64,000 nt of DNA, taken from assembly GCA_023229865.1 (NCBI GenBank), contig JALNYL010000006.1, positions 5,597 to 69,596 of the forward strand, read 5' to 3'. The stretch comes from Minisyncoccota bacterium. GTDB lineage: Bacteria; Patescibacteriota; Minisyncoccia; Phycocordibacterales; UBA1550. The notes under the pieces are model-generated. The model worked only from the letters and a program-made list of their open reading frames with translations, was not told where the DNA came from and did no database searches. Below are positions 7,017-26,243 of this stretch, piece by piece. Each line of letters begins with the position of its first letter. Within the stretch, counting starts at the first letter, position 1. Made by a program: the position numbers and the translations under genes.

Positions 7017-8075
7017 TCACTCCCTTCTAATAGGCTTATCTACACATGTTGGTCTTGGGGCTCCTGCGAAATTTGAATTCAACTTGGTACTAAGCTCCCA
7101 GCTGTCATCGGAAGTACGACTGCTCTCGACCTGGTTTTCAATGTCATCGGGAAGTTCAGAAAGGAAATCGATTTCCGTACGCCGTTCAATTTCATCAACA
7201 GTCGTGACAAGCTTTGAAAGCTCTGTGCCTGGCTTTGTTTGTTGTGTAAATATGACTGCAAGTACATTGGGTTTCCCGTCGGTCTCTTTTACGATGATCT
7301 TGTAAAACGCGACGGGCAACTCGACACCAGAACAAAGACGGTTGAGCCACACAGGATCAAAGATGGGGCCAGCAGTTACCCATATATTACCGACTTGTTC
7401 CGCGTATGAAGCCTCAAGCATTTCCAGCCCTAGCCACGACTTTTGGTTAAGTGAGGGAAGTTGTGGGGTGATGTTCGACATGAAGTAGGTCTCATTCTGC
7501 GAATCACATCCATGCCGTGAGCCTATGTTATCGCTTGGAGCCATGTGCCCACGGTCGTATCCCGAGCTGTTGTAGCTATCATGAGTGGTGCGAATGAGGG
7601 TGCGATCATCAGTGAGGAATCGAGATAGCCGAGGGCAATCATGCCCTTGATCTGTACCAATCTGATATGCAGACCATAGAGGGTTCGCCTTTGTTTCTGA
7701 ATACCCGACAGCGTACGCCGCGTTTTTGATGTGCGATATTTGATCGCTCACTTTGGAATCATTGGGGAGGCCACCAAAGAACACACTCCGCTCAACCCCA
7801 GGGGGATCGCCGCTGAACAAGCGAACTCGTGATTTGTATACCCACCCAGTCCCCGAACCATTGAGGAGCCGAATCTTATGGTAGCCATTTTGCAGTTTGT
7901 CACTTACGGTAAGCAGATAGATTTGCTGACTGAGCTTCTCCGGATGGACTGACTCAAGGATTGTTGCATTGCGGTCGGGGGATGCGTAGATGTTAGCGCT
8001 ACGCTTGACCTCAACATAGTTTGCCCAGGCGCAGGCTGGGAATATACACATCAGGATAAGCAGTGCCCGTCGCAT
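7017..8075 (-). CDS. secreted DNA/RNA non-specific endonuclease (Serratia NucA/Endonuclease_NS family) with N-terminal signal peptide and extra N-terminal domain
   Basis: SGYDRGHMAPSDN active-site (DRGH) motif, downstream N..TPQ region; signal peptide MRRALLILMCIFPACAWA; SD AGGAG before ATG 8075 (track start 8081 is GTG). Confidence 0.85.
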   Translation of the reverse strand: MRRALLILMCIFPACAWANYVEVKRSANIYASPDRNATILESVHPEKLSQQIYLLTVSDKLQNGYHKIRLLNGSGTGWVYKSRVRLFSGDPPGVERSVFFGGLPNDSKVSDQISHIKNAAYAVGYSETKANPLWSAYQIGTDQGHDCPRLSRFLTDDRTLIRTTHDSYNSSGYDRGHMAPSDNIGSRHGCDSQNETYFMSNITPQLPSLNQKSWLGLEMLEASYAEQVGNIWVTAGPIFDPVWLNRLCSGVELPVAFYKIIVKETDGKPNVLAVIFTQQTKPGTELSKLVTTVDEIERRTEIDFLSELPDDIENQVESSRTSDDSWELSTKLNSNFAGAPRPTCVDKPIRRE

Positions 8076-8130
8076 AACCACTCCTTCTATCTATGCTCGA
8101 TATACAAAGTTGAGTGATGCCGTGCCTGAC

Positions 8131-8550
8131 CTAAATTGTTTTTTCTAAATCCAGTTTCATCTTTGCGCTTTTAATCTCTCGTTCAGCCTTTGAGAAATCT
8201 TCATGTTCTTGCTGAGCCGAACTTTTCCAGTTCAGGAAATCCCGGAATAGCTTGATTGATCCTTTGCTTCCACCAGACACAACCCCTGCTGTAATGAGGT
8301 AACCCACGAGTGTGTTTTTCTCCTGGCTGAAGATCACCGCCATGGCATCGAATTGGTACAGGTACACAATTACAAGAGATGTGATGATGACAATGGGCTC
8401 CTTGAAGCCCTTGTTCTTCATTTTATCCAAAACCAAACGTGACTCGAATATTGGGGACAGGGCGCGTTCGACGAAGAGCGAGAGCAAAACGATTGTCCCG
8501 AGTACCTCTAAGACAACATCTCCCTTGATTCCAAAAAGTAGCGGGTCCAT
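8131..8550 (-). CDS. small membrane protein, unknown function (downstream of rSAM maturase; possible export/immunity role)
   Basis: ATG with SD GGGAGA; three hydrophobic segments. Confidence 0.5.
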   Translation of the reverse strand: MDPLLFGIKGDVVLEVLGTIVLLSLFVERALSPIFESRLVLDKMKNKGFKEPIVIITSLVIVYLYQFDAMAVIFSQEKNTLVGYLITAGVVSGGSKGSIKLFRDFLNWKSSAQQEHEDFSKAEREIKSAKMKLDLEKTI

Positions 8551-8652
8551 TCAGTATCTCCCTGTCGTGTTTTAGATTCTTCACTTTACTACAGCGTTTT
8601 AGAGCCCGTAAACAAGCCCCTCAATATACTGTCAATGTAATGTGTTCCCGAA

Positions 8653-10029
8653 TTAGCGCCCATCTGATGAATTAATTAATGCAGCCTCGGCATCTGAAAT
8701 CAGAATCGCGCGGCCAATCTTGCCCACATATTTTTCTATGTTGAATCGCACAGCATCACAGGGAGTCAGCGACTGATCCATGAAAATTCTAGGGTGAGCA
8801 CATCCCCCCATACAAAGAGGCAAAACATTGCAACTCTTGCATCGCTCATTTTCAAACGGAGAATAATCTGCCCATTGCTTATCGATATTGGAAGCAGACG
8901 AGGGCAATGGTTTATAACCCTCTGAAATATGCCCTGACTGCTCAGTAACAGCCCCTACGCTATGCCAGCAGCGACTGATTGACCCATCTGGCCCGATGAC
9001 AATCATCCTGTGCGCAGAGGCTGAACATGCTGCGGATTTAGGAGTTAACTTCCGCGCCAACATTTGCATGCCGTTATCGCTTACTGATAGTGCAAGATTT
9101 TCAAGTGTCGCGTATTCGCTCCGCCCCAGGCTGCATCCATGACCACAAGGGCCATCAGAAGGATTCCGCTTGCCGTCTGAGTTGGTTGCATACCCAGCAT
9201 CTCCCTCGTAATCATAGACGTGGGACAACACAACGGTTGGCACAGAGTTGGCGCGAAGATCATCCAAAATATTTTCAACTTCGTGCGCATTCTTGTTCGT
9301 TACATTAATCCGCACTTGAATATCCAGGTGATCTTTGGATTCCAGAAGATTCTTGTATATCCTGGAAGGCTCACCGGTGCTTGTTCGCATCCCCCGCAAC
9401 CCAGTTTGCTCTTGAAGGGAGTCAAAGCATATCTGAACATTTCTCATGCCAAGCTTGTCCAGTTCCTTCGCGGTGTCTTGGTCGAGCAGTGCTCCATTGG
9501 TGACCATAGTAACGTCGAGTTTACCGCGAGCACTTCTGACAACCTTGCGGATATCCTCAGTCAATTTGATTATTTGCGCCTTACGCAATAATGGCTCTCC
9601 GCCAAACCAGGTAACCAAGAAGCGCCGCCAGCCAAACTGGATGCACGATTCAATGTACTGCAACAATTGCTCCTCCACCTCTGGGCGCATTATGGCACTC
9701 GTGCGATACGACGCTTGAAAGCAATATTCACACGAATAATTGCAGGCGAGTGTGGGAACAAGGGTCAGGTGGAGCGTGTCTCCTCCGCGCGAAGCAAGAA
9801 AGGTTTTCTTGATGAGCTCGATTTCGTCGTCTTTGTGAAGGAATCCCATGCGGCGCAATTGTCGCGGATCGATAGCCTTTTTTAGATCACCATCCCCACG
9901 AAGAATTTCTGCATTTTCTGACGAGAGAAGAGCGAAGGTTCCTGTGCGTGCGTTATATCCAATAACACCCTCATCTCGCTCAATGAAATAATTGTAGCGC
10001 GAACGAACATAGTCGAATCGCTTAGACAT
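8653..10029 (-). CDS. radical SAM / SPASM-domain peptide-modifying enzyme (anSME/ranthipeptide-sactipeptide maturase-like)
   Basis: CNYSCEYC (CxxxCxxC) cluster; C-terminal SPASM cysteines C...CWH and CKSCNVLPLCMGGCAH; N-terminal ~100-aa peptide-recognition-like extension. Confidence 0.85.
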   Translation of the reverse strand: MSKRFDYVRSRYNYFIERDEGVIGYNARTGTFALLSSENAEILRGDGDLKKAIDPRQLRRMGFLHKDDEIELIKKTFLASRGGDTLHLTLVPTLACNYSCEYCFQASYRTSAIMRPEVEEQLLQYIESCIQFGWRRFLVTWFGGEPLLRKAQIIKLTEDIRKVVRSARGKLDVTMVTNGALLDQDTAKELDKLGMRNVQICFDSLQEQTGLRGMRTSTGEPSRIYKNLLESKDHLDIQVRINVTNKNAHEVENILDDLRANSVPTVVLSHVYDYEGDAGYATNSDGKRNPSDGPCGHGCSLGRSEYATLENLALSVSDNGMQMLARKLTPKSAACSASAHRMIVIGPDGSISRCWHSVGAVTEQSGHISEGYKPLPSSASNIDKQWADYSPFENERCKSCNVLPLCMGGCAHPRIFMDQSLTPCDAVRFNIEKYVGKIGRAILISDAEAALINSSDGR

Positions 10030-10064
10030 GGATCGCCCCCGCTACCGTATTACTGACTTGCTGA

Positions 10065-10244
10065 TTACTTGACACTGCAACTGAGAACGTCGCAGCAGAT
10101 GGATACCAAACCGCCAGGACGCGGAATTTTGGTAGTTATTCTTGAACTGAATGAACCAGTGTTAATCGCGGGGATTTTTACGACCATTTCTTTGGTCCCC
10201 GTAGCAAGTAATTTTATTGCTCCTGTCTTTGCGGTAGTAGCCAT
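10065..10244 (-). CDS. candidate RiPP precursor peptide, 59 aa: MATTAKTGAIKLLATGTKEMVVKIPAINTGSFSSRITTKIPRPGGLVSICCDVLSCSVK (not in ORF track, <60 aa)
   Basis: ATG preceded by GAGAGGAG SD at 6-nt spacing; 35 nt upstream of and co-oriented with rSAM/SPASM gene; Gly-Gly motif followed by 14-aa Cys-rich C-terminal core (3 Cys). Confidence 0.55.
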   Translation of the reverse strand: MATTAKTGAIKLLATGTKEMVVKIPAINTGSFSSRITTKIPRPGGLVSICCDVLSCSVK

Positions 10245-10592
10245 GCTGCACTCCTCTCATAAGTTGGAAAAACAATAAAGCCTTCGTACCCATTGTGGGC
10301 AGCGTGAATGGTAGGTCAAAAACAAATTTTGCGGCGCGGCTTGTCGGACTAGGCGAAGAACTAGACCAACCTGCGTCGAGGTCTATAACTTGGTCTATAT
10401 ATTCATAGCGCTGTGCAGGACACTGTGGGGGGGCTGTGTTCCGTACAACCTGGCCCCGGCAATTATTTGCCCATTGCCGGAAAAGTAATGACGCCCGACA
10501 AAGTGATTGATGGAAGAGGCGTATTGGTTGGACCCCCTCGTAACGATGGTTGAAACTGGGTTAGGCTTCCGCCTCAACTAGGAAATACGTGG

Positions 10593-11075
10593 CTAATTCT
10601 CAATGCAACCATTACTAGCTGCGAAACCACATACTCCATCAAGTAGAAGTCCCCCTGCCTGTTTTTCTCGAGTTTTTATATCGAACATCATCAAACCACG
10701 ATGAGTTGACCAGAGATACCAGATTTTCGGGCTCCCATTCTTCTCAATGACTAGTGCTGGGCGTTCTCCCCGCAATCGAATTCTTTGGATTACCTTATAT
10801 ATCGATCCATTAAATTCCCATTTGTTTTGAAGAATCGAATTTCTTGGGACAGCAAATTCAAATACTTTTGAGACAACGCAATGAAATTCATTTTCTGCAT
10901 CACAAAATTTTGCGTCATATCCAACGTCTCCAACAATGACAGAGTTTGTTGTTCTGTCAATGGCGAAGCCGGGACCCTTTGATGGTATACGGATATATTC
11001 CGCAATTTGTTCAGCAAAACAGCACGTGGTAATAGTCCACGTAAAGAAGATAATTGGTATTGTTTTTACTTGCAT
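10593..11075 (-). CDS. exported hypothetical protein; candidate immunity protein for upstream Rhs-CT toxin (overlaps toxin stop by ~10 nt)
   Basis: N-terminal hydrophobic signal-like segment; position immediately downstream of toxin cassette; track start 11081 is TTG, ATG at 11075. Confidence 0.4.
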   Translation of the reverse strand: MQVKTIPIIFFTWTITTCCFAEQIAEYIRIPSKGPGFAIDRTTNSVIVGDVGYDAKFCDAENEFHCVVSKVFEFAVPRNSILQNKWEFNGSIYKVIQRIRLRGERPALVIEKNGSPKIWYLWSTHRGLMMFDIKTREKQAGGLLLDGVCGFAASNGCIEN

Positions 11076-11683
11076 GAGCAATCCCCTGAAAGGAATTTTC
11101 TAGCCCAAGCATCGGCGTCATTTTCGCCAGGTGCCTCTTTGCCAACAAGCGCGCGAGAATTATCCAAGCTATGATTTTCATTCATGAGGTGGCGGAACTC
11201 GTGCGTAAAGATTAGTGAAGGTCCGGGATCATGGGATGTGAGGTTGAAAAAGTCCCAATTAAATCGCGTTTCCTGGGTCGAATACCATGTGTCAGCAAAA
11301 CCAGTTCTAGCTCGATGAAATATATCATCTGCCTTTGGGTCAACGTAAACTTTCCAGTTATCAAATTTTGATTGGAGCGCTGCGCGATTCTTCTTGCATG
11401 TTGTATTTATCTGCGCTTGCATCAGACTGCCAAGATGCCACAAAAACGCCTCGCGCTTTCTTAATTCCGCTTCTGCGGCATCGCTAGATGGCTGCCCACG
11501 TCGTATAACATCATACAACCCATATGGGTCTGAATTGACTAACGGGTTGCTCCTTACATAGGCATACGTATTAACGCCACCTTCTAGTCCGACAGGATCG
11601 GATTGGATATATCTCGCAAGCGCATTCTCCTCATAACAAGCAAGCGCAAGAAATAGCACCACAACGTTTCTGAATCTGATCAT
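11066..11683 (-). CDS. orphan Rhs/YD-repeat C-terminal toxin module: signal peptide + Rhs core terminal junction + ~150-aa toxin domain with HExxH (putative zinc metallopeptidase toxin)
   Basis: ARYIQSDPVGLEGGVNTYAYVRSNPLVNSDPYGL matches RHS-core end motif (DPxGL...NxYxYxxNPxxxxDPxGL); toxin region contains THEFRHL; SD GGGAG before ATG 11683 (MIRFRNVVVLFLALACYEENALA). Confidence 0.7.
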   Translation of the reverse strand: MIRFRNVVVLFLALACYEENALARYIQSDPVGLEGGVNTYAYVRSNPLVNSDPYGLYDVIRRGQPSSDAAEAELRKREAFLWHLGSLMQAQINTTCKKNRAALQSKFDNWKVYVDPKADDIFHRARTGFADTWYSTQETRFNWDFFNLTSHDPGPSLIFTHEFRHLMNENHSLDNSRALVGKEAPGENDADAWARKFLSGDCSCK

Positions 11684-11693
11684 TGCCATCTCC

Positions 11694-12671
11694 CTATTGA
11701 GCCAATCTCGCACGCTCCACGACTTGCTTGTACTGTGCCTTGTAGACCTCCGTTGGCATTCTCCAACCGAGCGCTTCTGCCTTGTCGTACCAAAGTCGAC
11801 TGTTACGATCCAAGAAAGCGTAATTCGACCGCTCTTCCAGCGGAATCAAGTCTGGTCTGGGATATTTGTTGATGAAACGGTCTTTGATCAACCTCGCGTA
11901 GGATGCGCCTTTGTGAAGCATGGCATTAACTGCTTTTGGCGAATACTCCAGCACCATATCAGAAGCCTCAATGGCCTTTTCGTATTGGTGCTTGTGCATG
12001 TAATGCTCGATCAGCGTATCTGTCATTAAAGCAACAGTTTCTTTTTTGCTTAGGGGGCGGAGATAGACGCCATTTGCGATGGCTTCGTCAGTCATGGGCA
12101 TTTGCTGCCTAAGCCACACATCTCGTGCCGTGTTTGCCCCGCTGGTCGCTTCGAGATTAATCCAGCCCTCATTGTTGGCTTTGTACTTCACGAATATGTG
12201 TTCGGGCGCAGTAGCGGCAGTCACTTCGAGGCCAAGCCGTTGCCCAAGGATGATGAAGAGGAAGGGCATGGAGACGCAATTGCCTTTTCTGGACTCCAAA
12301 TAGCTGGGCAGCAATTTATGGCTTATGTCTTCCCCATAAGGATCTGCCAAGTCGTACTGGTAGGGGCGCTGTCCATTCCATGGGTTGGCGGTATAAAGAT
12401 ACGTTCTTAAAACCTGTAGTTTTTCTGGGCTGGATGCATTGAATAGAAGCCCCATTTGGATGTTTGCCACCATCGAATCAATTTTTTTGAGGTTGGCCAT
12501 AATATCAATACTTGGGTCGATCATTTTGTCGATGGTCAGTTTTGCTTTGCCAAGATCAATCTGGTTTTCCGGCAGTCTTAGCATTGCTTGAATTGGACTG
12601 AGATCGTTGGCGAACGCAGCACTGCTTGGGACGGCCATAATCAGCAACAGAATCAGAAAAATACACCGCAT
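11694..12671 (-). CDS. secreted transglutaminase-like (papain-fold Cys-His-Asp) superfamily protein
   Basis: signal peptide MRCIFLILLLIMAVPSSAAFA; RKGNCVSMPFLFIILGQRLGLEV ... PEHIFVKY ... WINLEAT motifs resembling transglutaminase-like core; track start 12827 is TTG. Confidence 0.5.
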   Translation of the reverse strand: MRCIFLILLLIMAVPSSAAFANDLSPIQAMLRLPENQIDLGKAKLTIDKMIDPSIDIMANLKKIDSMVANIQMGLLFNASSPEKLQVLRTYLYTANPWNGQRPYQYDLADPYGEDISHKLLPSYLESRKGNCVSMPFLFIILGQRLGLEVTAATAPEHIFVKYKANNEGWINLEATSGANTARDVWLRQQMPMTDEAIANGVYLRPLSKKETVALMTDTLIEHYMHKHQYEKAIEASDMVLEYSPKAVNAMLHKGASYARLIKDRFINKYPRPDLIPLEERSNYAFLDRNSRLWYDKAEALGWRMPTEVYKAQYKQVVERARLAQ

Positions 12672-12844
12672 GCCTTGCCTGTCCAAAATGCAAACCAGAA
12701 GAACCCTACAGCAAGAACTGTTTTTCGACAATATGCCATTGGGCGCATTAAGGGGAAGCTTTCTCTCGGAGGCCATCGCAGGGATTGAAGCTGGTAAATG
12801 GAGATTTAATGTCTCCACGAGGTGCAACCAGATGTGCCCATGCT

Positions 12845-13129
12845 TTAGCCAAAGCGCTTCCAGTTATCAATGAGCCACTTCTTCACATTGGCGTGACTCC
12901 GCGTATCACCTGGTAGATGCTTCTTTATCAAGCGCTCTACCTTTACTCCAGAGTCTTTTTGTTTTAAATCACATGCGGTTGCGAAGCTATTAATAAATGC
13001 CAAGACCTCGTAACCTTCATTCCGATTCAGGAACGTACTATCCGGTTTGCCGGTGACCTTGGGATCATCTGGAGCAATGGCCGTCCATGAGTAGTCGAAT
13101 TCCAAATCGCTTTTTTGAAGAAGTGGCAT
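12845..13129 (-). CDS. hypothetical protein (94 aa)
   Basis: ATG with strong SD AGAGGA; no recognisable motif. Confidence 0.4.
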   Translation of the reverse strand: MPLLQKSDLEFDYSWTAIAPDDPKVTGKPDSTFLNRNEGYEVLAFINSFATACDLKQKDSGVKVERLIKKHLPGDTRSHANVKKWLIDNWKRFG

Positions 13130-13263
13130 ATTGTCCTCTCGGTGAAAATATTGCTGAACGGCGCATGACTCTACTTCTGAAATCCAGATAAGACAATATG
13201 CCGAACTATCTAGATATCTACGCGAAAGATATAGATACCTCCATATTCCTTGCTTGGATTTGA

Positions 13264-15993
13264 TTACTGCTTCTCAGCTTTTGAGAGCGACCGCGCAATT
13301 ACCTGCGCTACCGCGCTACGTCGTTCGGCGATGTCAGAAGGGGAGAGTGCCTGACTCGTCACCTTGACCTTGTACCCACGCACGGTACTTTCTGTCGTCG
13401 TTGGCGTCGTTGAAACAACTTGGTCGAGGTGTTCGATCAAATCCTCTGGGCTGAAATACCGCACCTTGTCTCGCACTGCTTCATCCAGGTTCGCGGGAAT
13501 GAACCGTGCAAGCGATTTCAAGTGGCGCGCATTCGTGCTGACAACCAATACCTCTTCGTATCCAGCTGAAAGACACTTCTCAACGTTCTGGAGCTCCCAG
13601 TCTCGTCCCGTGGTCACGGATATTTCCACGGCGATCTTGCGTTCTCCCTGCGAGAGGTGAACATCCACCCGTCCCGCACCATCAAGGATGGGTTCTTCGA
13701 TGGATGCCTTGAATGCGCGTTCTTCTGCAAGCTGCTTTACGAGTTGCGCAAGGTACTTGTGCTGCTTCCCACCACCCCCTTGTTCCTTCACCTCATATTT
13801 CGGGCTGGGGGTAGTGGTACGGAATACACGCGGCGCGGGTAGCTCAGGGTAGGGGGAAGAGCCTGCGCCGAGGTCTTCGTGTACAGGCTCCCCCTGGGGC
13901 GCTGGTGCAATCCCTTTCGGTGCCACCATCTCCTTCTTCTCAATCCGCCTGGCTACTGGTGGGACGATCTCAATCTGCGGAATCCGTGCCTCCACGCCAT
14001 ACACTACGCGATTCCTCTCGATGAGCTCTGCATACTGGATATCGTCAAGCACTGGCTCCCGTTCTACCACCCCGAGAGGAATGGAAACGGAAAGCGCTCT
14101 GGCCGTGAAGTTCTTCACATAGCAGGCGAACTCCGTATGGTTCCCGTATTTCTTTTGCTGCAATAGGAAATTAGCATCAGTACGGAACTCTGCATCAAGT
14201 GAGTTTGCATCCTTACTACTTACGCCACCGGCGAATTTAATGGAGGTACTAGCAAGGACACTTGCGCGAAGCGCTGGGCTCAGTTGGTCGAGGTTCTGGT
14301 GACTAAAGACCAGGCCAATCTTGTATTTCCGCGTCTGGTTCACCATGCGGTCGATATTCTCGTCAAAATAGTCCTCAGCCTCGTCGATATATGCAAAGGT
14401 GGGGGTTCGCTCGTGTGCGGGCAATATCGCGCGTTGTATGGCCGCCTGCGCGATCAGGGACACGATGAATCGGCCAAATATTGAAGAACCTTCGTGCCCC
14501 AAGAAATCCTTGGCCGTATTTACTAAAATGATCTTGCCCTCCTGGGTCAGCTTGAATAGGTCAACCTTGTTCTTGGGGTGGCTGAGCATTCGTTCGAGGG
14601 TCGTGTTACTGAGTACGCCCCAGAGTCGTGCCGTGATCTGTTTTTTGTTCTCGGCGAACTGCCGATCAAAAAACTGCGTCGCAAAGAATGTGTGGGCAGT
14701 ACCTGTGAGCTTTTCCATGTAGGGGCGGTACTTCTCTCCGTTCATCATGAGCTCAAGGAGTGTATGAATGGTGGCATTAGGGATTTCCATCATGAGGCGG
14801 GCAAGGTAGCGGAATATCACCCCCTGCCTTTGGGTGAGCTCTGCGCCAAGGAGTGCCCCGAAGAAGTACTCGTAGGTCTCGACTGTTGCGTTGAGAATCA
14901 TTTCTCTGTCTTGCGCTGAAAGCGTACCCATCCGCGCCCGGTCGAAGTCGAACATATTGAGTCCAACAGGATGCTCTACATCAGTCGGGTCGATGAGGAC
15001 AAACCGATCCGCAAGACTGTTTCCCTCACTTGGGTCAAAGAGCTTCAGGTGTGCAATGGTGCGGATCATGTCTCCCTGGCTATCCATCACGATGATCGAC
15101 CTCCCATCCTCCTGTGCCTTCACGAGGTCATGATGAATGAGGAACTGGAGTAGTTGTGTTTTGCCGTGCCCTGATCCCGCAACGATATGCGTGTGTTCAA
15201 ATCGCGCCGGGAAGGGGATAGCAAAGGGAAGTGTGTAGTAGAAAAAAGAGCGAAGCGGTGTTCCCTGAAGATACCCGTCTATGAGGTACTCAGGTGCGGT
15301 GCTCTTGTTGTCGCCCGGCATGATGATCTTCTGCGCCGTACCGTGCCGCCCGCCCGGCGGAACCCCCGACATGAGCCCTACGTTTCCTTCAAGTCTTTCC
15401 CGGAGGGGATCGAAGAGATGCGCATTCACCACGTCAGCATCGTAGAACGTGAGGATGAGCCGGTCGAGTACTTCGGGCAGATTATCGCAAAGGTCCCCTA
15501 TGTGCGCCTCGGGAAGGGTAACGGCGTTGTCAGAAGCAACTCCGTTTGCTCCGATGTCGGTAAAAGCCGAGAGCGGAAAATATTCGAGCATCCCCGAGAA
15601 CAGCCATACCAGCTTATCCCGCCAGATGACGGTCAGTCGTTCGTGGTCGTGGAGGTAATGCAGGTGCCGTTTCCAAATTGCACGAAGTTGAATTCCTTCC
15701 TCAATCGTGAGTTTGGGGATTGTGGAGCGCGGGGGAAGTTCAATAATGAGCCCATCGAAGGACAGGAGACTCCTCACGGTATCGTAGAGCGCATTCCCGA
15801 GAGGAGTCGAGGGGGTGACCCCGCGCCGTTCGCAGACCTCAAAGATGATTTCAAGAATGAAGTCACCGATCTTATCTTCATCTGAAAACGGCGCGCAAGC
15901 CTGAGCATCAACTACCTGCTCATAGAGGGTAGTCATGTCTTTGATCTCGCGGCTACGCGCCGAACCACGAAACCAGTTCTTCCAGTTCGACAT
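13264..15993 (-). CDS. large FtsK/HerA-superfamily P-loop ATPase, TraG/TraD/VirD4 coupling-protein-like core (no obvious TM helices) with ~270-aa N-terminal and ~200-aa C-terminal extra domains
   Basis: Walker A AGSGHGKTQLL, DSQGD after P-loop, Walker B AYIDEAEDYF, FSHQNLDQL; translationally coupled to upstream small gene. Confidence 0.65.
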   Translation of the reverse strand: MSNWKNWFRGSARSREIKDMTTLYEQVVDAQACAPFSDEDKIGDFILEIIFEVCERRGVTPSTPLGNALYDTVRSLLSFDGLIIELPPRSTIPKLTIEEGIQLRAIWKRHLHYLHDHERLTVIWRDKLVWLFSGMLEYFPLSAFTDIGANGVASDNAVTLPEAHIGDLCDNLPEVLDRLILTFYDADVVNAHLFDPLRERLEGNVGLMSGVPPGGRHGTAQKIIMPGDNKSTAPEYLIDGYLQGTPLRSFFYYTLPFAIPFPARFEHTHIVAGSGHGKTQLLQFLIHHDLVKAQEDGRSIIVMDSQGDMIRTIAHLKLFDPSEGNSLADRFVLIDPTDVEHPVGLNMFDFDRARMGTLSAQDREMILNATVETYEYFFGALLGAELTQRQGVIFRYLARLMMEIPNATIHTLLELMMNGEKYRPYMEKLTGTAHTFFATQFFDRQFAENKKQITARLWGVLSNTTLERMLSHPKNKVDLFKLTQEGKIILVNTAKDFLGHEGSSIFGRFIVSLIAQAAIQRAILPAHERTPTFAYIDEAEDYFDENIDRMVNQTRKYKIGLVFSHQNLDQLSPALRASVLASTSIKFAGGVSSKDANSLDAEFRTDANFLLQQKKYGNHTEFACYVKNFTARALSVSIPLGVVEREPVLDDIQYAELIERNRVVYGVEARIPQIEIVPPVARRIEKKEMVAPKGIAPAPQGEPVHEDLGAGSSPYPELPAPRVFRTTTPSPKYEVKEQGGGGKQHKYLAQLVKQLAEERAFKASIEEPILDGAGRVDVHLSQGERKIAVEISVTTGRDWELQNVEKCLSAGYEEVLVVSTNARHLKSLARFIPANLDEAVRDKVRYFSPEDLIEHLDQVVSTTPTTTESTVRGYKVKVTSQALSPSDIAERRSAVAQVIARSLSKAEKQ

Positions 15994-16002
15994 GGGGACG
16001 CG

Positions 16003-16386
16003 CTAGTATTCGAGAGCTTCCTCGCCTCCAAACTGGGATGCTGCCGTGAGTACAGCCTTGAAGGTTTTGCAGGCTTCCTTGATCTGATCTTCTACGGCGA
16101 GCATTTCGACAATGTCTTTGCACTCGATCTGCTTACCCTTCGAGAGGTCATTCACCGAAAGGGAGATATTGAGAGCCTTGAGAGCGAAACGGCTTGCTGC
16201 ACCAAGGAGGCCGCTGCCAGGATCAATAACCTTGTCCCGCTCGTAGAGCATGGTTTCGCCAAGTTTGTATTTCTTGATGTGTTCTTGTTCTTCGTCGGAT
16301 AGCTCGGCACGTACATCAAGGATGAATGAGACTTTGCCCATCCCCATCATTCCGGCTTTTTGATCCCTGCGCAGCAATACTTTCAT
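16003..16386 (-). CDS. hypothetical protein (127 aa), first gene of the ATPase operon
   Basis: ATG with SD AGGAGA; stop 9 nt before the ATPase start. Confidence 0.5.
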   Translation of the reverse strand: MKVLLRRDQKAGMMGMGKVSFILDVRAELSDEEQEHIKKYKLGETMLYERDKVIDPGSGLLGAASRFALKALNISLSVNDLSKGKQIECKDIVEMLAVEDQIKEACKTFKAVLTAASQFGGEEALEY

Positions 16387-16622
16387 GGAGTTTCTCCTGT
16401 AAGGTTAGTTGAGAACTGCACAACATATGCGTTTCCTCCTAACCCAGGAAGGTCTCCATCAAGAGATGCTTCGGGTGACTCCACCTGCATCCGGTAATCG
16501 GTGTGGCGGTATTGGTATTTGTGGAGCGCTCACGAGGAGAACTCCGCCCTGCATTATGCGCTTGCTTCTTAGGTCCACTCAAGAGGAAGTCAGGGATTCA
16601 AAAATATGCGTAGAAAATGAAA

Positions 16623-16653
16623 CAGGGTTCTCGTCGTAATGACGAGAACCCTG
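16623..16653 (-). terminator. perfect 13-bp stem / 5-nt loop hairpin (CAGGGTTCTCGTC-GTAAT-GACGAGAACCCTG); T-rich tract follows on minus strand
   Basis: seen in sequence; lies in ~1-kb non-coding stretch between the two ATPase operons. Confidence 0.4.
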
Positions 16654-17359
16654 CCTATTCCGAAATGACCTAGTCATACATCGAGCGCCATGCCCAGCCT
16701 CCCGTCGGCTCACGAACTTCTGTTCGTCGTCGCCGGTCTTTCCCTGATCGCCGATTACAACATGGCATGTTGAAATTGTCGCATCTGCAGATACGTGCTT
16801 CTGCTGCGATGTCCCCAGGTGTTTTTTTCGTGTCCATAACTATCTCCTTATCCGCTCTCGCGGGTTAGATTTAGAAACCGAAAGGAACTGAATTCATGAG
16901 GGTCGCAGATCGGATTTAGTGCCATCTCTTGCAAAAGATTTGCGGAAATGCTTTACTAATCCAGTCCAGCATTACGACCATCGCTTTACTACGCTTTGAA
17001 GCAGGGAGCCTCCTTTCTTGGCTCATCAGTAGGTTGGACACTGGGACCTGTTAGCGCAGGTTCCACCAAAGCCCGCCAAAACATCGGCGGGTTTTTCTTT
17101 GCATATTCAAACTGTTCCATAAATTTCTTTCGTTTCCGATGGCAAAGAAAATGCCCGCAATAATCGCAATTTTTAAAATTCGCAATTGTGGCGGGCATTA
17201 TCGCGGCCTCAAATGGCCTTCGATCTACTCCGCTTACTTCAACCGGTGCTGCTCATCTGCGTATGTTGCATCCTGTAATTGATTGCCCCGCTTCTGCGGG
17301 TGAATGTGCTGATCGAATATTAGCCAACTTCCTGCAAACATACAACCCATGCATGGGTA

Positions 17360-18520
17360 TTAATTCCTCACCGTCGTCGCACTAAACGGCTTACTCGGTG
17401 CGCCGTCGATCATGAGCTTGAGATATATGTCATGGTTCGGAATGTTCACCAAGTCCTCAGGTGAAAACACCGGCTCGAATTCCCGTGCAAGCGTCCGCGC
17501 ATCCTCTGCTCCTACGCGAAAGGCAATGAGCGTACCGACATTGCCCAGGACTGCATGCATCACCTCTCCTTCAAGTTGGTGAAGGTGCTGATTGGCAAGC
17601 ACGAGCCCAAGTTTGAATTTGCGAAGTTCCGACACAGTGTTCGCCACAGAAAGCGTCGTGAAGTTCTGGAATTCATCGAGGTGAAGATAAAACGGCCGAC
17701 GTGAATGTTCAGGTAGTTCGCTTCTGCTGAAGGCAGCAAGGTTGAGTGTGGTTACCAAGAGCGCCCCCAAGAGATTTGCGCTGTCGTCTCCCAATCGCCC
17801 CTTGGCGAGATTCACGATGAGGATCTTCCCTGAGTCCATGATGCGGCGAAAGCTGAGATCAATTGGTGGATTCGTAAGGATGCGGAAAAGCCTTGGGTCA
17901 GCAAGGAACGCGCCGATCTTGTTCTGGATAGGGGAGATCATCTCCTGGCGGTAGCGAGGGTTGTAGTCTTTGAACTCGTGTTCCCAAAATTCGCGCACCT
18001 GCACGTTGGAAATATTTTTCACTACGTTGTGTCGATACGCAGTGTCGCTAAACATGCGCAAAATGTCGGGGAGCGTCGCATCGCCGTACTCAATCAGAGC
18101 GTAGAGCGTGTTCCTGAGCACATGCTCCATGCGCACACCCCAAGCATCATCAAAGAGTTTCTTGAGCGCCTCCATGAGTCCTGAGACGGCAAGTGGCACC
18201 TTGTCCTTCCGCACCTGTCTGAGGGGGTTGTAGCCATACGGCTGATCGATATCAGCGGCATCCAGGTAGACGAGGTCGTCAGATCGCTCCTGGGGAATCC
18301 TGGCTATGAGACGCTCCGCCATATCGCCGTGCGGATCAATGACACACACTCCGTGCCCGTGTGCAATGTCCTGCTCTGCCAATGTCTCCATGAGCGTCGT
18401 CTTGCCGGTGCCGGTTTTTCCGATGACGTACAGGTGAAACAAGCGATCATCACTCTTGATGCCGAACCGCACCTTCTTTCTTCCGTTGGTCTCCGCAAAA
18501 TAGCTGATGTTGTTCTTCAT
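17360..18520 (-). CDS. HerA/DUF87/TrwB-like P-loop ATPase (386 aa)
   Basis: Walker A VIGKTGTGKTTL followed by VIDPHGD; Walker B YLHLDEFQNF. Confidence 0.65.
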   Translation of the reverse strand: MKNNISYFAETNGRKKVRFGIKSDDRLFHLYVIGKTGTGKTTLMETLAEQDIAHGHGVCVIDPHGDMAERLIARIPQERSDDLVYLDAADIDQPYGYNPLRQVRKDKVPLAVSGLMEALKKLFDDAWGVRMEHVLRNTLYALIEYGDATLPDILRMFSDTAYRHNVVKNISNVQVREFWEHEFKDYNPRYRQEMISPIQNKIGAFLADPRLFRILTNPPIDLSFRRIMDSGKILIVNLAKGRLGDDSANLLGALLVTTLNLAAFSRSELPEHSRRPFYLHLDEFQNFTTLSVANTVSELRKFKLGLVLANQHLHQLEGEVMHAVLGNVGTLIAFRVGAEDARTLAREFEPVFSPEDLVNIPNHDIYLKLMIDGAPSKPFSATTVRN

Positions 18521-18657
18521 GCAGAGAGCCTACCCAGCCTTGCGCAATATCACACGGCGCGGATACGTGCCGTCTTGGCACATTCTCCCGTCGTGAGATT
18601 TTGTTTCGTATGGTGAACTATATAGGTCGGCTTGTTCTTTATCGAAAGGAAACCGAC

Positions 18658-19224
18658 ATGACCATGAAACGATTATCAAACCAAGAGCTACTCACCATGC
18701 TTATCGGCGAAGGGAAAGCTAAGCAGTTTTGTCGTACCGAACTCGTATCGCTTGTATTTGCAGAAGAGGGGAGCGAGGACTATGTACAAGAACTCGGTGT
18801 AGCACGCGAGCTCGTCAAGCGCTCCCTTGAAGAAACGCTTTGCAGGGGGAATGCTCTTTTGTCTCCCCAGATTGTTGCCGACTATCTCAAGGTCATCTTG
18901 AATGGCCTCGGACATGAAGTGTTTGTAGCACTCTTTCTGGATGCTCAGCATCGCCTCATTGCCGCTGAAGAGCTCTTTCGGGGAACGCTCACACAAACAT
19001 CGGTGTATCCACGCGAGGTGGTGAAACGGGCGCTCTATCACAATGCTGCAGCCGTGATCTTTGCTCACAACCACCCCTCGGGAGTTTCCGAACCAAGCAC
19101 TTCGGACGTGATGCTCACTGGGGCACTAAAGCAGGCCCTCTCGCTTGTGGACGTAAAAGCGCTCGATCATCTTGTGGTAGCAGGGAGTGACGTAGTGAGC
19201 CTTGCAGAAAGAGGGCAAGTGTGA
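18658..19224 (+). CDS. radC: RadC-like JAB/MPN domain protein (UPF0758)
   Basis: JAMM motif HNHPSGVSEPSTSD; helix-hairpin-helix-like N-terminus; SD AAGGAAA before ATG 18658 (track start 18601 is TTG). Confidence 0.85.
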   Translation: MTMKRLSNQELLTMLIGEGKAKQFCRTELVSLVFAEEGSEDYVQELGVARELVKRSLEETLCRGNALLSPQIVADYLKVILNGLGHEVFVALFLDAQHRLIAAEELFRGTLTQTSVYPREVVKRALYHNAAAVIFAHNHPSGVSEPSTSDVMLTGALKQALSLVDVKALDHLVVAGSDVVSLAERGQV

Positions 19225-19283
19225 GGGAAGGGAACATTGATAGCCGTGAAGAAATTCACGGCTATTTTCTTTGGGCGTTCTTA

Positions 19284-19299
19284 GTATAATCTGCGAATG
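19284..19299 (+). promoter_or_regulatory. perfect TATAAT (19284-19289) 7 nt upstream of the IHF-like ATG with no SD: probable leaderless transcript
   Basis: seen in sequence. Confidence 0.35.
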
Positions 19300-19614
19300 A
19301 CTCGCTCTGACCTCATCGCCCGCTTAGCCGAACTGCACCCTCGATTGCTTGCCAAGGATGCAGAACTCGCGGTCAAAGTAATCATTGATTCCATCTCTGA
19401 CTCACTAGCACATGGTGGTCGGGCAGAGATTCGTGGCTTCGGTAGTTTTGGGTTGAATTACCGACCGCCGCGCAAAGGTCGGAATCCGAAAACAGGGGCA
19501 GGTGTAAATATTCCCGCGAAGTATTCGCCGCATTTCCGGGCAGGGAAGGAATTGAGGGAGCGGGTGAATCCTTTAGACGATCAGACTAAATCCCCAGTGA
19601 ATGGGGAAAAGTAA
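19297..19614 (+). CDS. integration host factor beta / HU-family DNA-binding protein
   Basis: [15 protein letters not shown]...[47 protein letters not shown] is the classic IHF-beta/HU arm signature. Confidence 0.85.
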
Positions 19615-19785: not shown

Positions 19786-20583
19786 TTACTCGACCCACCT
19801 TACCTCGTAGTAATGTAAGAGTCCTGGCTTGGGAATAATCCACTTTGCCAAGCCATTTTTATCAATTTGTTTTACTTCAGAGCCAAAAGATGTTTTCGCT
19901 CCAAAATCCCCATAATGTTCACAAACAGCCTCTTTCGATGTATATGTTAAAGGTAGCTTAAGCTCCAAATGCAGCACATCTGTTGGCTCATGTATTGTTG
20001 CAGAAAATGATCGCAGTGCTTTTTGTTGTGGGTCGACAAAATCCCACACTACTTCCGCCGTGACAGTTTCGTTTTTTTGTAAATTCCTTGAAAAACGAAT
20101 ATCAAAAAAGGTCCACACGTTCCTTTGAAATGCGGTTTGTACGCACTGCCCAGGAATGGCGCTACTGATGCTAATAGATCCTTGCCCAGTCCATTGATAA
20201 CGATCTCTGTAGGCGTCAAGGCCATTTCGGAGAGCTTTCAGCTTATATCGCCTTCTGTGTTGAATCTCTGTTGCGGAACGGTACTCATGATAAATATGTT
20301 TTTCTATAAGATGAAAATCAGGTTCAAGCCGTGGAAAGGTTGGTCGATGGCGACGGAAAGCGTTGTATGCCCAATTGATTGTCAAAGTAGATATTATAAA
20401 AAATAAGGCAAAAAGAGGTAACACATATTCATTAAGGAAATTCTGAGTCTTGCCAATTGAATCTGCGCCAATAAAGGAAACTGACGATGCAGCTACGATT
20501 ACTCCAGCACCCTTGATAATTTCAATTAGTAGATTCGAACCAATATCTACAGAAAATTTTCGTTTGAAACTTTCTAGGTTCAT
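19786..20583 (-). CDS. hypothetical 2-TM membrane protein with ~190-aa soluble C-terminal domain
   Basis: ATG 20583 with SD GAGGGGA (track start is GTG); two N-terminal hydrophobic helices. Confidence 0.5.
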   Translation of the reverse strand: MNLESFKRKFSVDIGSNLLIEIIKGAGVIVAASSVSFIGADSIGKTQNFLNEYVLPLFALFFIISTLTINWAYNAFRRHRPTFPRLEPDFHLIEKHIYHEYRSATEIQHRRRYKLKALRNGLDAYRDRYQWTGQGSISISSAIPGQCVQTAFQRNVWTFFDIRFSRNLQKNETVTAEVVWDFVDPQQKALRSFSATIHEPTDVLHLELKLPLTYTSKEAVCEHYGDFGAKTSFGSEVKQIDKNGLAKWIIPKPGLLHYYEVRWVE

Positions 20584-20657
20584 TATGTCCCCTCGTTTCA
20601 GATACAGTTTGATTGGCACTCACAAGTGATTCGAATTGTGGCCGCCTGAATAATAAC

Positions 20658-21185
20658 CTAACTGTTATCTTCTCCAAACATCGTCTCTGTGAAGCCCTCA
20701 AAATATGCATGAACGCATGCTATGTGCCCAGCGACTTCATCCCTCAATTCCTTCTCTGTTGTCGAGGGAGGGAGGGCGAGCCATCGCCGCGCTTGTCTTT
20801 CAATACTCATTGAATTGGCATGTCGATCTAATACGCTTGGATGTATGCAGGCGAGTATCTCAATGGTGGCCTGGGTACGCAATTCATTGAGTGAGAATAT
20901 GTACCCGAGCATCTCTTCAGCGATTCTGTAGTACGCGTCATCACAGCCATCCTCGGCGCACCATGCCGGCAGATCAATATCGGAAAGTACGAGTTCAAGC
21001 TTCTGGTCGAATGTGAGGTGCTCAACACGGAGAACATGCCGATTTGGAACAAGATTGCGAACATATTCTTCGAGCAAAATTTCCATGCGATGATGCCCAA
21101 CGAGAATTATTTCCGTCAGGTCGTGTGCCCTTTGGAGAGCAACGTATATTGATGTCTGTTCAAAATCTTCGTCGCGGATGTTCAT
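20658..21185 (-). CDS. hypothetical all-alpha protein (175 aa) with C-terminal Rx5H motif (LRDEVAGH) - weak HEPN-like hint
   Basis: ATG start; operon with downstream 2-TM protein; motif seen, family not recognised. Confidence 0.45.
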   Translation of the reverse strand: MNIRDEDFEQTSIYVALQRAHDLTEIILVGHHRMEILLEEYVRNLVPNRHVLRVEHLTFDQKLELVLSDIDLPAWCAEDGCDDAYYRIAEEMLGYIFSLNELRTQATIEILACIHPSVLDRHANSMSIERQARRWLALPPSTTEKELRDEVAGHIACVHAYFEGFTETMFGEDNS

Positions 21186-21279
21186 TGTTGTTCTGTGCCG
21201 AAGCAGTCAGTAAAACACGTCTGCTCAATCGCAGAGTATCTCCATAGGAATTTTACGTAAAATGCTGGTGGAATTTTAA

Positions 21280-22653
21280 ATGTTTTCAGGCGCGGAGTAT
21301 CCTTCTATGACGATTATTGCTGAGCTCCTAAAGCCCTATGTGCTGTTCCTGCAAGGAGCTGCCTATAGCATTGGACAGACATTGGATGGCTTGGGAGTCC
21401 TCTCGTCAAACATAGTCGAGACAGATGTCAATGGACAGATCATAGGAAGCTATTTGTCGCCATCTGAGGCTTACATTTCTATCCTGCTTGGTTTGTTGTT
21501 GCTCTACTTAATGCTTCTAGTTGGAGCACTCTTTCTTTCTGGTTATGTTTTAGGGAAATGGAGAGGAGCCTTAATTGCCACATTCATAATTTCCCTCCCT
21601 GGAATCGCCTCACTTCTCGGGATCTTTCCAAACATAAATTACTTGCCGGATAAATTTGTAATACACGGAACAGGGACCCTTGGGAGTGTTGGGGGGATGT
21701 TCCCTCTTGTGTTGATTGGATTATTGACAGGATGGAGTCTTGTACTCCTTCTGAGTGACTTATTTGATCTGGGTGATAGATTCCGACATTACTTCGATCA
21801 CTTCTGGTACTCCATGGCAGTGCTTGCAGGAATTTTCTTTGTTGCCGACACGGGAAATTCTGATGTGTTGCGTGAACTTGACGAGGCAAATCAACTTTCC
21901 AAGCAAGCGAGCATTTATCTCCTTCGGGAAGTAAGAGCATATGACGCTCAGTGCAATAGAACGCCATCCATTGGAAAAGTGTCTTGCTCTTGGGCCTCAG
22001 ATGTGCAACAAGAGCTGAGTGATTACGTGGTGGTAAGTCCACAGTCCTTTGCTAACTGGGGACCTAAATCTGCTTCTGACATTTACGACCCCTACAGGGG
22101 AAATATCTCGTCTGATCAAATCCAGCAAATTAGGCACGAGCTTAAGGCATACAACAGCACACACTGCCCTGTGAAGGACATCGGAAGGGGTTGGTCCCAG
22201 CAGTCGCGCTCATCAAGTGTTTGCCTCAGACCCCCAAGCGCCTTCTGCACTGCGTTTCCGGAACCTCTTGATGGGGTGTCTCAGAACAATACCATATTCC
22301 GAACTGTTGCCATTTCTAACGAGTGCGTTGTCGCATCACTAGTAGCCTTGCGCGCAAGACAGGAGAAGCTCGTTAACAAGGTTTCTGAGATCGAAGAATC
22401 TAAGCACTCCCGGTGGCTCTTCTTTGCACTTTTTTCTGTAGTCGCGGGTGGCAAAGTTGCAAATGCATCTGCAAGAGTCGCGGAGCTTGATAGAAGGAAT
22501 CAGCTTGAAAAGCGGCGTCTGCTTAAGTTAGTCCGCAATCTTTTGTCCATTGCCTGGAAACTAATTCAGCGCTCAGCCTCCACCGGACGGCGGATTTTGT
22601 CTTCCTCTTTAAGATTAGTGGGCCGAGTTATTGCTGCTAGTTGGAAGCGCTAA
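21280..22653 (+). CDS. hypothetical polytopic membrane protein (457 aa) with Cys-containing loop domain and basic C-terminal tail
   Basis: multiple hydrophobic helices; no recognised motif. Confidence 0.5.
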   Translation: MFSGAEYPSMTIIAELLKPYVLFLQGAAYSIGQTLDGLGVLSSNIVETDVNGQIIGSYLSPSEAYISILLGLLLLYLMLLVGALFLSGYVLGKWRGALIATFIISLPGIASLLGIFPNINYLPDKFVIHGTGTLGSVGGMFPLVLIGLLTGWSLVLLLSDLFDLGDRFRHYFDHFWYSMAVLAGIFFVADTGNSDVLRELDEANQLSKQASIYLLREVRAYDAQCNRTPSIGKVSCSWASDVQQELSDYVVVSPQSFANWGPKSASDIYDPYRGNISSDQIQQIRHELKAYNSTHCPVKDIGRGWSQQSRSSSVCLRPPSAFCTAFPEPLDGVSQNNTIFRTVAISNECVVASLVALRARQEKLVNKVSEIEESKHSRWLFFALFSVVAGGKVANASARVAELDRRNQLEKRRLLKLVRNLLSIAWKLIQRSASTGRRILSSSLRLVGRVIAASWKR

Positions 22654-22671
22654 TTCTTCCCCATAGTTCGC

Positions 22672-23523
22672 TCACTTTGACGTAGGGGAGTTGCTATTGA
22701 GTGTTAGGTTCCCCAAGAAAGTATTCCACTCCTTTTTGCTATCTTCTTTGAGCGATCTAATGCAAGGTTGTCCTGGCTTGAACATCCACTTTGAGCTTCT
22801 GATCAAGACTCCCACGACTTTGGGAACATCATTCTTGGGTGATTCCTTTGCAATATGCACTCCAATAATTCCACGTATTGCATTCCCTTCGACTTTGAAA
22901 GTTACGATGAAAGGCTCGTTCGACATGAGCCGTACGCATCCATCAATTTGGGGATCACAGGACCACCAATATATTTCCAGTTTTGTGAGATCGAGAATCA
23001 GGTGGAGGCATATATGCAGCCACCTCCCAAATTCTGATGGGTTGATGGTCTCGTCAATTTCTTTTGCTTCGTTTGGTAGTAATTTCCTATCGATATGAGA
23101 CGATAGTTTGTTCCGCGCAATGCTCACAGGAGCCTTGAAATCATGTGGGAGCATTGCGCTGAACTGTTTGCTTATGGCCTTGATTTGCTCGTACTGCTCA
23201 TCGCTTTTCAATAACTTTGCAGTGTCCTTGTTACACAAAATATCGTTAAGAAGATCATCGATGGACATTATGAGTGAATGGAGGGGCGTTATGGCAATCT
23301 TGAGACGGCGCTTCTTCTTCGTCGCGTTCTTCTGGTGAACCGCTTCCTCTAATAGTTCCTCAAGGTCTCGCAAGCACTCAAGACATCGCCATAATTTGTG
23401 TGCCGACGAGTTTGATGGGTGCCAAGCATTTACCTCAGCTTCGCCTTCCGCAAGCGAGCTCACAACTTCTCGGTCAATGGTGTCGAGATATACTGGTATC
23501 CCTCTGTTTTCTTCTTCAGACAT
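22672..23523 (-). CDS. hypothetical soluble protein (~283 aa)
   Basis: ATG 23523 preceded by GGAGAGG (track start 23562 is TTG); no recognised motif. Confidence 0.45.
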   Translation of the reverse strand: MSEEENRGIPVYLDTIDREVVSSLAEGEAEVNAWHPSNSSAHKLWRCLECLRDLEELLEEAVHQKNATKKKRRLKIAITPLHSLIMSIDDLLNDILCNKDTAKLLKSDEQYEQIKAISKQFSAMLPHDFKAPVSIARNKLSSHIDRKLLPNEAKEIDETINPSEFGRWLHICLHLILDLTKLEIYWWSCDPQIDGCVRLMSNEPFIVTFKVEGNAIRGIIGVHIAKESPKNDVPKVVGVLIRSSKWMFKPGQPCIRSLKEDSKKEWNTFLGNLTLNSNSPTSK

Positions 23524-23966
23524 TACCTCTCCGCTCATATTGAACCGCATCACTAGTTTCAACCACTTCTATTGCCAAACCGGAACATTTCCACTTCTAC
23601 ATATCAACACTCACAGCAAGTAGCATTGTCACATGCAATATAGCAACGAAGTCATACAGAAGTTTATCGCTGCCTACGAACGCGCGCATGGAGAAACACT
23701 CACGCGTGAGGAAGCGATAGTCATGTTTGGAAGACTTGTTCGACTCTATCGCGTATTGCTAATACCTCTGCCTGATGACGATGATCAGTCTACAGGGCTT
23801 CTTCTGTAGTATCTGGCTCCAGTGCTTCGAGCACTTGTTTTTGCAGTACTCGGATATTGTGTAAGACGTGTTCTGTTTCAGTGTCTCCAGTTTCAATTAA
23901 TGTGCGAACGTACTTCATGTACCCGCACAAAACGTAAAGAAAAACAGTGCCTGCGCACTGTTTTTT

Positions 23967-25917: not shown

Positions 25918-25980
25918 TTTGATTTTAGAATAAATCTCTGTACGAAAGGCGGCCATGGCCGCCTTTCGTACAGAGAAAAT

Positions 25981-26055
25981 GCCCCTGTAGTTCAATGGAT
26001 AGAACAGTTCCGTCCTAAGGAATAGATGTAAGTTCGATTCTTACCAGAGGCACCA
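25981..26055 (+). tRNA. tRNA-Arg (anticodon CCT), CCA encoded; one C-A mismatch in acceptor stem
   Basis: cloverleaf folded by hand: D-arm TAGTTCAATGGATAGAACA, anticodon loop GTCCTAA, T-arm GTAAGTTCGATTCTTAC. Confidence 0.75.
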
Positions 26056-26056
26056 G

Positions 26057-26085
26057 AAAAATCTCTACGTTTGTAGAGATTTTTT
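26057..26085 (+). terminator. terminator hairpin after tRNA-Arg (AAAATCTCTAC-GTTT-GTAGAGATTTTTT)
   Basis: seen in sequence. Confidence 0.6.
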
Positions 26086-26243
26086 GTGCCCCTGGTAAGA
26101 ATCGAACAAGAAGGGGGCCAGGGAAACATTTGTTTCCCTGTGGAGGAAGGATTGGGAAAACCGTGGGTTTCCCAAGGGTGAGATAGTGAAGCGTCTTACC
26201 AGAGGCACAAAGCGTTAAGAAAACCTGCTCTTCTGCAGGTTTT

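Follow-up and report, generated by a model that had tools for sequence, protein, structure and literature searches.

The question raised by four uncharacterized genes in a 64,000-nucleotide window (the whole stretch of DNA analysed, from a contig of Pacebacteria, in the candidate phyla radiation, CPR) is whether they form a single defence system or came to lie side by side by separate routes. The genes, here called A to D, stand beside a conjugative-element-like block, and a first-pass annotation had grouped them as a low-GC island that might be one part of a defence island split by that block. The reading that we favour, and regard as probable, sees the stretch as a patchwork: four accessory genes, each acquired on its own, lie beside the block, and D among them is a HEPN-like solo toxin. 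D is the only gene of the four with a defensible function.

The four open reading frames (ORFs) lie where they had been placed and are long, intact and non-overlapping in an ORF scan; only the start of C has moved. Gene A (19786..20583, minus strand, 265 aa) opens at an ATG at 20583 with a Shine–Dalgarno sequence, GAGGGGA, 4 nt ahead of it, and B (20658..21185, minus strand, 175 aa) lies upstream of A across a gap of 74 nt. Gene C, which encodes a polytopic membrane protein of 448 aa on the plus strand (21307..22653), most likely begins at the ATG at 21307, preferred over that at 21280 on account of a GGAG 9 nt upstream, the starts of its homologues and an independent gene call of 448 aa. Gene D (22672..23523, minus strand, 283 aa) converges on C, with 18 nt between their ends, and its ATG at 23523 is also the start of all of its relatives. 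Noise apart, Pfam, NCBIfam, PADLOC and PHROGs contain no match to any of the four proteins at E ≤ 0.1, sequence and profile searches of the PDB gave no meaningful match for any of them, and scans of relatives (the C and D alignments and chosen homologues of A–D against Pfam, a few homologues against PADLOC) gave nothing significant. The earlier statement that these proteins match no family therefore holds for the curated libraries but not beyond them, as C and D sit in sizeable uncharacterized families. As to a phage origin, a tblastn search of A–D against 50,697 phage records was empty, as were scans of IMG/VR with A, B and D.

The case for D is built on its family. A search of 5.8 billion proteins, the same one that supplied the relatives of A and B discussed below, returned at least 60 clusters of D relatives at 43–73% identity, with named sources in Serratia, Edaphovirga, Electrothrix, Oceanicoccus and Cellvibrio and others on CPR-like metagenome contigs. 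Ten more loci came from a scan of species-representative genomes, all of them in Gamma- or Betaproteobacteria or Electrothrix, and a further homologue (32% identity) is carried by a Scytonema plasmid; the range of the family takes in Proteobacteria and Desulfobulbales. In an alignment of 39 sequences with a mean column identity of 60%, the residues R137, N138 and H143 are invariant in all 39 members; in the window they belong to the stretch RNKLSSH, encoded at 23095..23115 on the minus strand, a candidate HEPN catalytic motif of the Rx4-6H type that the Scytonema plasmid homologue retains as RDKIDSH (R-D-x4-H). E49, D53, K69, K71, R72, K75, H170 and E203 are likewise invariant in the alignment. 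Such conservation matters here because Rx4-6H strings are common: each of the four proteins contains two or three of them, and they arise in 70–90% of shuffles of each protein, so the mere presence of the string is meaningless. Of the two Rx5H motifs that had been offered as evidence, that of D survives on its invariance and that of B does not, for reasons given below.

HEPN domains are defined by an Rx4-6H motif in which the residue after the arginine is N, D or H, and by an up-down bundle of four helices in which an insert often separates helices 2 and 3 and the motif lies where helix 3 ends or the loop to helix 4 begins (PMC3710099). D carries an Rx4-6H motif with a polar residue after its arginine as this definition describes, and its confident AlphaFold2 model (pLDDT 83.9, pTM 0.80) has helices at residues 39–61, 67–97, 108–124, 132–145, the last of these bearing the motif, and 162–179, after which come a sheet of four strands and one further helix (187–243). 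The model suggests an N-terminal HEPN-like helical domain (about residues 39–179) and a small beta/alpha C-terminal domain (about residues 185–270). Among the top ten Foldseek matches in the PDB are an HEPN-MNT protein (8xeh_D, probability 0.77), an HEPN domain protein (4nqf, probability 0.57) and an AMPylated HEPN toxin (8xdj). Weak HEPN_AbiU2 matches, the best at E 0.0055 and short of significance, occur in five of the 39 aligned members, and Abi_C matched over the motif region of one relative, P0061. D has no significant sequence or profile match to HEPN families, and a BFVD search with it returned nothing. By its motif and predicted architecture D is best filed as HEPN-like, and its family would be a new one within the HEPN superfamily, absent from the curated libraries.

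The genomic contexts of D homologues differ from one locus to the next. At L003–L005 the homologue is a single gene beside a PIN toxin–antitoxin (TA) pair within a nif cluster, at L008 it adjoins a Tn3-family transposase on an IncC NDM-5 plasmid of Klebsiella and Providencia, and at L026 it stands between a Wadjet (JetABC)/BrxR block and a block of methyltransferase, GHKL-ATPase and TniQ genes. In the ten loci from the genome scan it lies amid unrelated housekeeping genes; its neighbours there include two proteins with RelE matches and two with helix-turn-helix (HTH) matches, besides an integrase and a methylase. RelE/HTH-type genes occur near D in two loci. All-against-all BLAST of the neighbours at 14 loci found nothing conserved besides D itself, and D is therefore read as a solo, mobile gene; a small conserved antitoxin beside it was considered and rejected, none being present among the 14. 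Only one of these loci, in a Thiomicrorhabdus metagenome-assembled genome, has a Sel1-repeat gene (L012:1171-1962), which lies upstream of the D homologue at a distance of about 3 kb, and the 77 D-neighbour proteins include just one N6_N4 methylase. D has spread horizontally between phyla as a single gene, on transposons and plasmids and in defence islands. The L026 contig (L026:1-16861) forms a dense defence island around a 66%-identical D homologue, with JetA (JetB and JetC being on a sister contig), a BrxR/WYL regulator, a tetratricopeptide-repeat protein, D, an N6_N4 methylase-like protein and a GHKL ATPase, and a TniQ-family gene at its edge which would suggest that the island is Tn7-like cargo.

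These observations allow a mechanism to be proposed for D. The protein would be a metal-independent RNase with an active site formed by R137, N138 and H143 (R-N-x4-H), and would probably work as a dimer, as other HEPN enzymes do. Its conserved C-terminal beta/alpha domain and tail (residues 244–270 for the tail) may keep the RNase inactive; once triggered, for example by infection or stress, D could serve as a one-gene abortive-infection (Abi) or addiction toxin. That D is a metal-independent HEPN RNase seems to us somewhat likely; an antiphage role is a fair possibility that we judge slightly less likely than its contrary. At about 280 aa, distributed across phyla and missing from Pfam, NCBIfam and PADLOC, the D family may represent a new RNase toxin or antiphage gene that works singly, and one that would be cheap to test; its presence in a Pacebacteria genome provides an example of recent gene flow into the CPR.

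If the four genes worked as one system they should travel together, and co-occurrence across genomes had been set beforehand as the test of that idea. A tblastn search with A–D as queries covered 21 related loci, none of which, bar a duplicate of the window, has two of the families; L025, added by a second tblastn search with A, B and their neighbours, has no B, and the gene tables of L022–L024 and L026 show no second family. In all, no two of the families co-occur in 25 related loci. Relatives of C lack A, B and D. The one-system idea is refuted by this absence for C and D, and for A and B it is unsupported on what are very few loci. The main practical outcome is a negative one: neither annotation nor experiment should treat the four genes as a single system. 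What remains of the earlier suggestion is an association with defence of the genes taken separately, which is favoured by the D motif, by the occurrence of D in islands and transposons, by the A homologue beside a Ppl-like ATPase and by the relatives of C in restriction–modification (R-M) loci, but which does not extend to a single system.

Genes A and B deserve separate treatment, as they had been proposed to form an abortive-infection toxin/sensor pair. Hydropathy agrees with the two membrane segments assigned to A (residues about 18–40 and 51–73), which are followed by a C-terminal soluble domain of about 185 aa. Only two relatives of A were found, at 31–33% identity, on unrelated contigs with GC contents of 51% and 64% (L002:1061-2463 and L025:5971-7379, coordinates that include the next gene), and in both a peptide deformylase paralogue follows directly, after a gap of 2 nt in L002 and with an overlap of 4 nt in L025; neither has a B-like gene. 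Upstream of the L025 homologue lies a Ppl-like PHP-ATPase (PADLOC E 6e-35). The A–deformylase pair of L002 is bracketed by two comM-like (Mg_chelatase_C) 3′ ends that are 88% identical over 51 aa, which suggests a site-specific insertion of about 2 kb. Gene A appears to have been recently acquired and may be the membrane partner of a deformylase cassette whose other member has been lost here. B is known from a single relative (P0004, 57% identity), the contig of which stops 62 nt past the B homologue (L006, from the reads SRR21285563). A and B are near-orphans.

B and A are nonetheless probably co-transcribed in the window, since they share a strand and only 74 nt, free of any terminator-like site, separate them. 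The divergent B/C intergenic region (21186..21306) contains a minus-strand promoter-like site for B (21279-21250), which overlaps a palindrome centred on TTTACGTAAA (21241-21272), a possible operator. This arrangement is what commends the view of B and A as a two-gene abortive-infection or TA-like module with A as membrane effector and B as soluble sensor or antitoxin, as do the small size of B, its strongly acidic composition (32 D+E against 15 K+R) and its place upstream of a membrane protein, the Ppl-like defence ATPase adjoining one A homologue, and the fact that the region downstream of the sole B homologue is off its contig. The comparative evidence points the other way: both A homologues lack B and are coupled to peptide deformylase, adjacency of the two genes was not found at L002 or L025 (the B side being incomplete where its contig stops), and the GC contents at third codon positions (GC3), 0.33 for A and 0.49 for B, argue for separate histories. 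Neither protein, nor the homologues tested likewise, matches a known Abi, TA or defence family in PADLOC, Pfam, NCBIfam or PHROGs, the best match of B in PADLOC, Pfam and PHROGs being a non-significant one to JetB (E 0.017). Nor is the Rx5H of B (RDEVAGH) conserved, as its R148 is a lysine in P0004; of the other Rx4-6H strings in B, one has H50 replaced by arginine in P0004 and the second ends at the unconserved position 56, and strings of this form arise in 89% of shuffles of B. Comparison of B with the HEPN region of the D family by hhalign gave a non-significant probability of 0.2%. We regard the B–A module as distinctly unlikely.

Three identities considered for B itself were dropped. An HEPN protein was rejected on the unconserved Rx4-6H and the non-significant hhalign result; a degenerate HEPN or MtlR-like protein, suggested by the string SLNELR[TN], was set aside, hhalign being non-significant and no histidine conserved; and a divergent peptide deformylase, suggested by the pairing of A relatives with deformylase, lacks deformylase motifs and would stand in the opposite gene order.

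The larger claim, that A–D form one linked defence island with the ATPase gene at the window start, turns on what lies between them and on composition. The ATPase (144-2345, 733 aa) matches PADLOC PDC-S46 end to end (E 2.7e-239), the only PADLOC match among the seven window proteins scanned, the genes between the ATPase and A having been checked against Pfam only. The HEPN-like character of D, the D relatives in defence islands and the relatives of A and C that also stand beside defence genes all speak in favour of such a link. The PDC-S series, however, consists of single-gene candidates, no two of the A–D families occur together elsewhere, and about 17 kb lie between the ATPase and A–D, occupied by genes of the recombinase, nuclease, radical-SAM and conjugation types, so that nothing requires one split system. 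Encoded in this conjugative-element-like block (3624-19614) are a large serine recombinase with a C-terminal HTH, a nuclease of the Endonuclease_NS family (non-specific DNA/RNA nucleases), one radical-SAM and one transglutaminase-like protein, two ATPases, of which one is VirB4-like (909 aa) and the other a TrwB/HerA-like coupling ATPase (386 aa), and RadC and HU.

Composition is uneven. The GC content of the four-gene region is 45.1% against 46.9% for the window, at the 18th percentile among windows of the same size, and with core genes at a GC3 of 0.45–0.57, the values for B (0.49), C (0.48) and D (0.51) fall within the core range; gene A alone is low (overall GC 40%), and the description of the region as a low-GC island is a weak one. 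The ATPase, with a GC of 38% and a GC3 of 0.39, is the most AT-rich long gene of those with computed composition, while in the block to the left of the four the recombinase, VirB4-like and coupling ATPase genes lie above the core at 0.58–0.65 and RadC and HU are host-like at 0.50–0.51. Sharp differences in GC3 between the ATPase, the conjugation genes, A and B–D thus count against a common system as well. A split island in the strict sense is very unlikely, whereas in a loose sense, as independent defence genes clustered as the cargo of one element, the idea is plausible.

Gene C belongs to the second sizeable family. Exhaustive HMMER searches gave 156 cluster representatives at E ≤ 1e-3, of which 68 have E < 1e-30 and are mostly full length, and C225, C236, C296, C315, W152 and W238 (numbered from the ATG at 21280) are invariant in the family, none of whose 49 scanned members has a Pfam match. 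The assignment of C as a polytopic membrane protein agrees with hydropathy, which gives at least three strong membrane segments. In the AlphaFold2 model (pLDDT 93.2, pTM 0.84) very long helices (61–112, 166–227 and 347–400) run from the membrane segments into a stalk, and a Cys-rich head (228–346), the domain with the four invariant cysteines, is followed by a basic C-terminal helix; Foldseek against the PDB found no relative (best E 0.4, TM-score below 0.2). We envisage a widespread family of membrane proteins in which a helical stalk would carry a disulfide-bonded outer head.

The neighbours of C relatives vary. P0065, which is 47% identical to C, is a solo gene among ordinary chromosomal genes with no helicase neighbour (L007), and other relatives on three short contigs each have different neighbours. 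In E. coli and Klebsiella, members of one branch of the family (30% identity, E 8e-40) are in every case directly preceded by a 1093-aa DEAD/DEAH helicase (L010:3627-8326, L027:9001-13700 and L028:9001-13701 in E. coli; L011 in Klebsiella). This pair, present in 15 of 5426 complete E. coli genomes, lies directly after hsdR-hsdM-hsdS in integrase islands at tRNA-Leu or tRNA-Phe, beside a PDC-S08 gene (5′-nucleotidase), and neither member matches a named PADLOC system; WP_028132769.1 and WP_236272960.1 are one example of the pair. A C-terminal PD-(D/E)xK-like stretch, LIHCKYS, can be read in the sequence of the helicase. The pair is a candidate R-M-linked two-gene module, unnamed in PADLOC, in which the distant enterobacterial branch of C would be coupled to a helicase-nuclease within type I R-M operons; by analogy with these distant relatives and their R-M-linked helicase, C may be a membrane effector or sensor.

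The breadth of the C and D families also bears on a more conservative explanation, by which A–D would be CPR-typical envelope or housekeeping genes or conjugation parts (VirB6- or VirB8-like) left unannotated through CPR divergence. Two membrane proteins, A and C, do adjoin VirB4-like and coupling-protein-like genes, and the GC3 values of B, C and D are host-like, yet many relatives of C and D occur in Proteobacteria at 40–58% identity with no conjugation genes around them, A and B are almost unique in the protein search, and no type IV secretion system family is matched by A–D. We consider this explanation highly improbable.

Several points weigh against the patchwork with an HEPN-like toxin and temper our preference for it. 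The HEPN assignment of D is based on motif invariance together with sub-threshold profile and fold matches: Foldseek against the PDB gave no match at E < 0.1 and TM-scores of 0.2–0.4, the D protein of the window has no HEPN match in Pfam, and a D profile search against PDB sequences found no HEPN protein. Many of the closest D matches are on short metagenome contigs, several of less than 2 kb, in which few or no neighbours are visible. For A and B, with two homologues and one respectively, non-co-occurrence rests on very few loci, and an A-like gene could follow the B homologue beyond the end of its contig. Finally, the tight packing of the four genes and the divergent B/C promoter region with its palindrome are compatible with a functional cluster.

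Independent acquisition of the four genes, the reading that we continue to favour, leaves room for a more far-reaching possibility: that the stretch holds up to three undescribed defence-type families of one gene each, D as an HEPN Abi toxin that crossed from Proteobacteria-like hosts into the CPR, C as the membrane part of an R-M-linked helicase-nuclease, and A as the partner in a deformylase cassette. In this full form we think it rather unlikely. If it is true, a CPR conjugative element would have as its cargo end a small defence island assembled from novel components. The C family, in any case, offers a confidently predicted membrane fold without a solved relative, and the lead to follow in E. 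coli is the pair of helicase and membrane protein behind hsdRMS.

Some features of the flanks may be recorded here. No att-like direct repeats that would delimit the region emerged from a repeat search, and the ends of the mobile element were not found. Between D and the gene for an RNase_T-family exonuclease, two small convergent, overlapping ORFs without a family match (23633-23918), one of 58 aa on the plus and one of about 42 aa on the minus strand, are followed by a bidirectional terminator-like hairpin (23939-23966). Further on, a perfect 42-bp palindrome with 21-nt arms and no spacer (25935-25976) lies between a glutaredoxin-like gene and tRNA-Arg, and the 3′ 33 nt of this tRNA-Arg(CCT) recur inverted 10 nt downstream of the tRNA with 85% complementarity (26032-26107), a repeat that might form a long hairpin or be what is left of a tRNA or of an attachment site.

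Genes A, C and D can each be compared with known systems. A resembles the membrane effectors of signalling defence systems that have two transmembrane helices and a beta domain, such as Cap15 of the cyclic-oligonucleotide-based antiphage signalling systems (CBASS), in that its own two N-terminal transmembrane helices precede a soluble domain that is probably beta-rich, as read from the sequence. A differs in that it has no PADLOC match, its relatives pair with peptide deformylase, and no cyclase was reported in the few window proteins scanned, the neighbourhood not having been searched for one. C recalls the accessory modules of type I R-M operons through its E. coli and Klebsiella branch behind the helicase, a likeness not shared by the C of the window and P0065, which have no helicase neighbour.

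For D, the best-ranked structural neighbours are the HepT/MntA HEPN toxins (8xeh, 8xdj and 4nqf), which align over about 135–150 residues and share the Rx4-6H type of site. The matches are non-significant (E 0.26–0.55, TM-scores 0.2–0.39), and D differs from these toxins in being twice their size and in having no MNT nucleotidyltransferase antitoxin or other conserved partner beside it at the 14 loci. The other comparison is with AbiU2 (PF18734; Anantharaman et al. 2013, PMC3710099), which is found in operons with a Sel1-repeat protein gene or with R-M genes (PMC3710099, Table 1); no such partner is conserved at D in the 14 loci. D also departs from AbiU2 in falling below the Pfam HEPN thresholds, none of which is reached by the window protein, and in possessing the additional conserved beta/alpha C-terminal domain and tail. 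What D shares with AbiU2 and other HEPN-domain abortive-infection proteins is the R-[N/D]-x4-H motif with its polar residue after the arginine, invariant in the D family, the predicted position of this motif on a short helix in an all-helical bundle, in which D has one helix more, inserted between core helices 2 and 3, and carriage on mobile elements and in defence islands, and it is to HEPN_AbiU2 and Abi_C that the only profile hints for the D family point.

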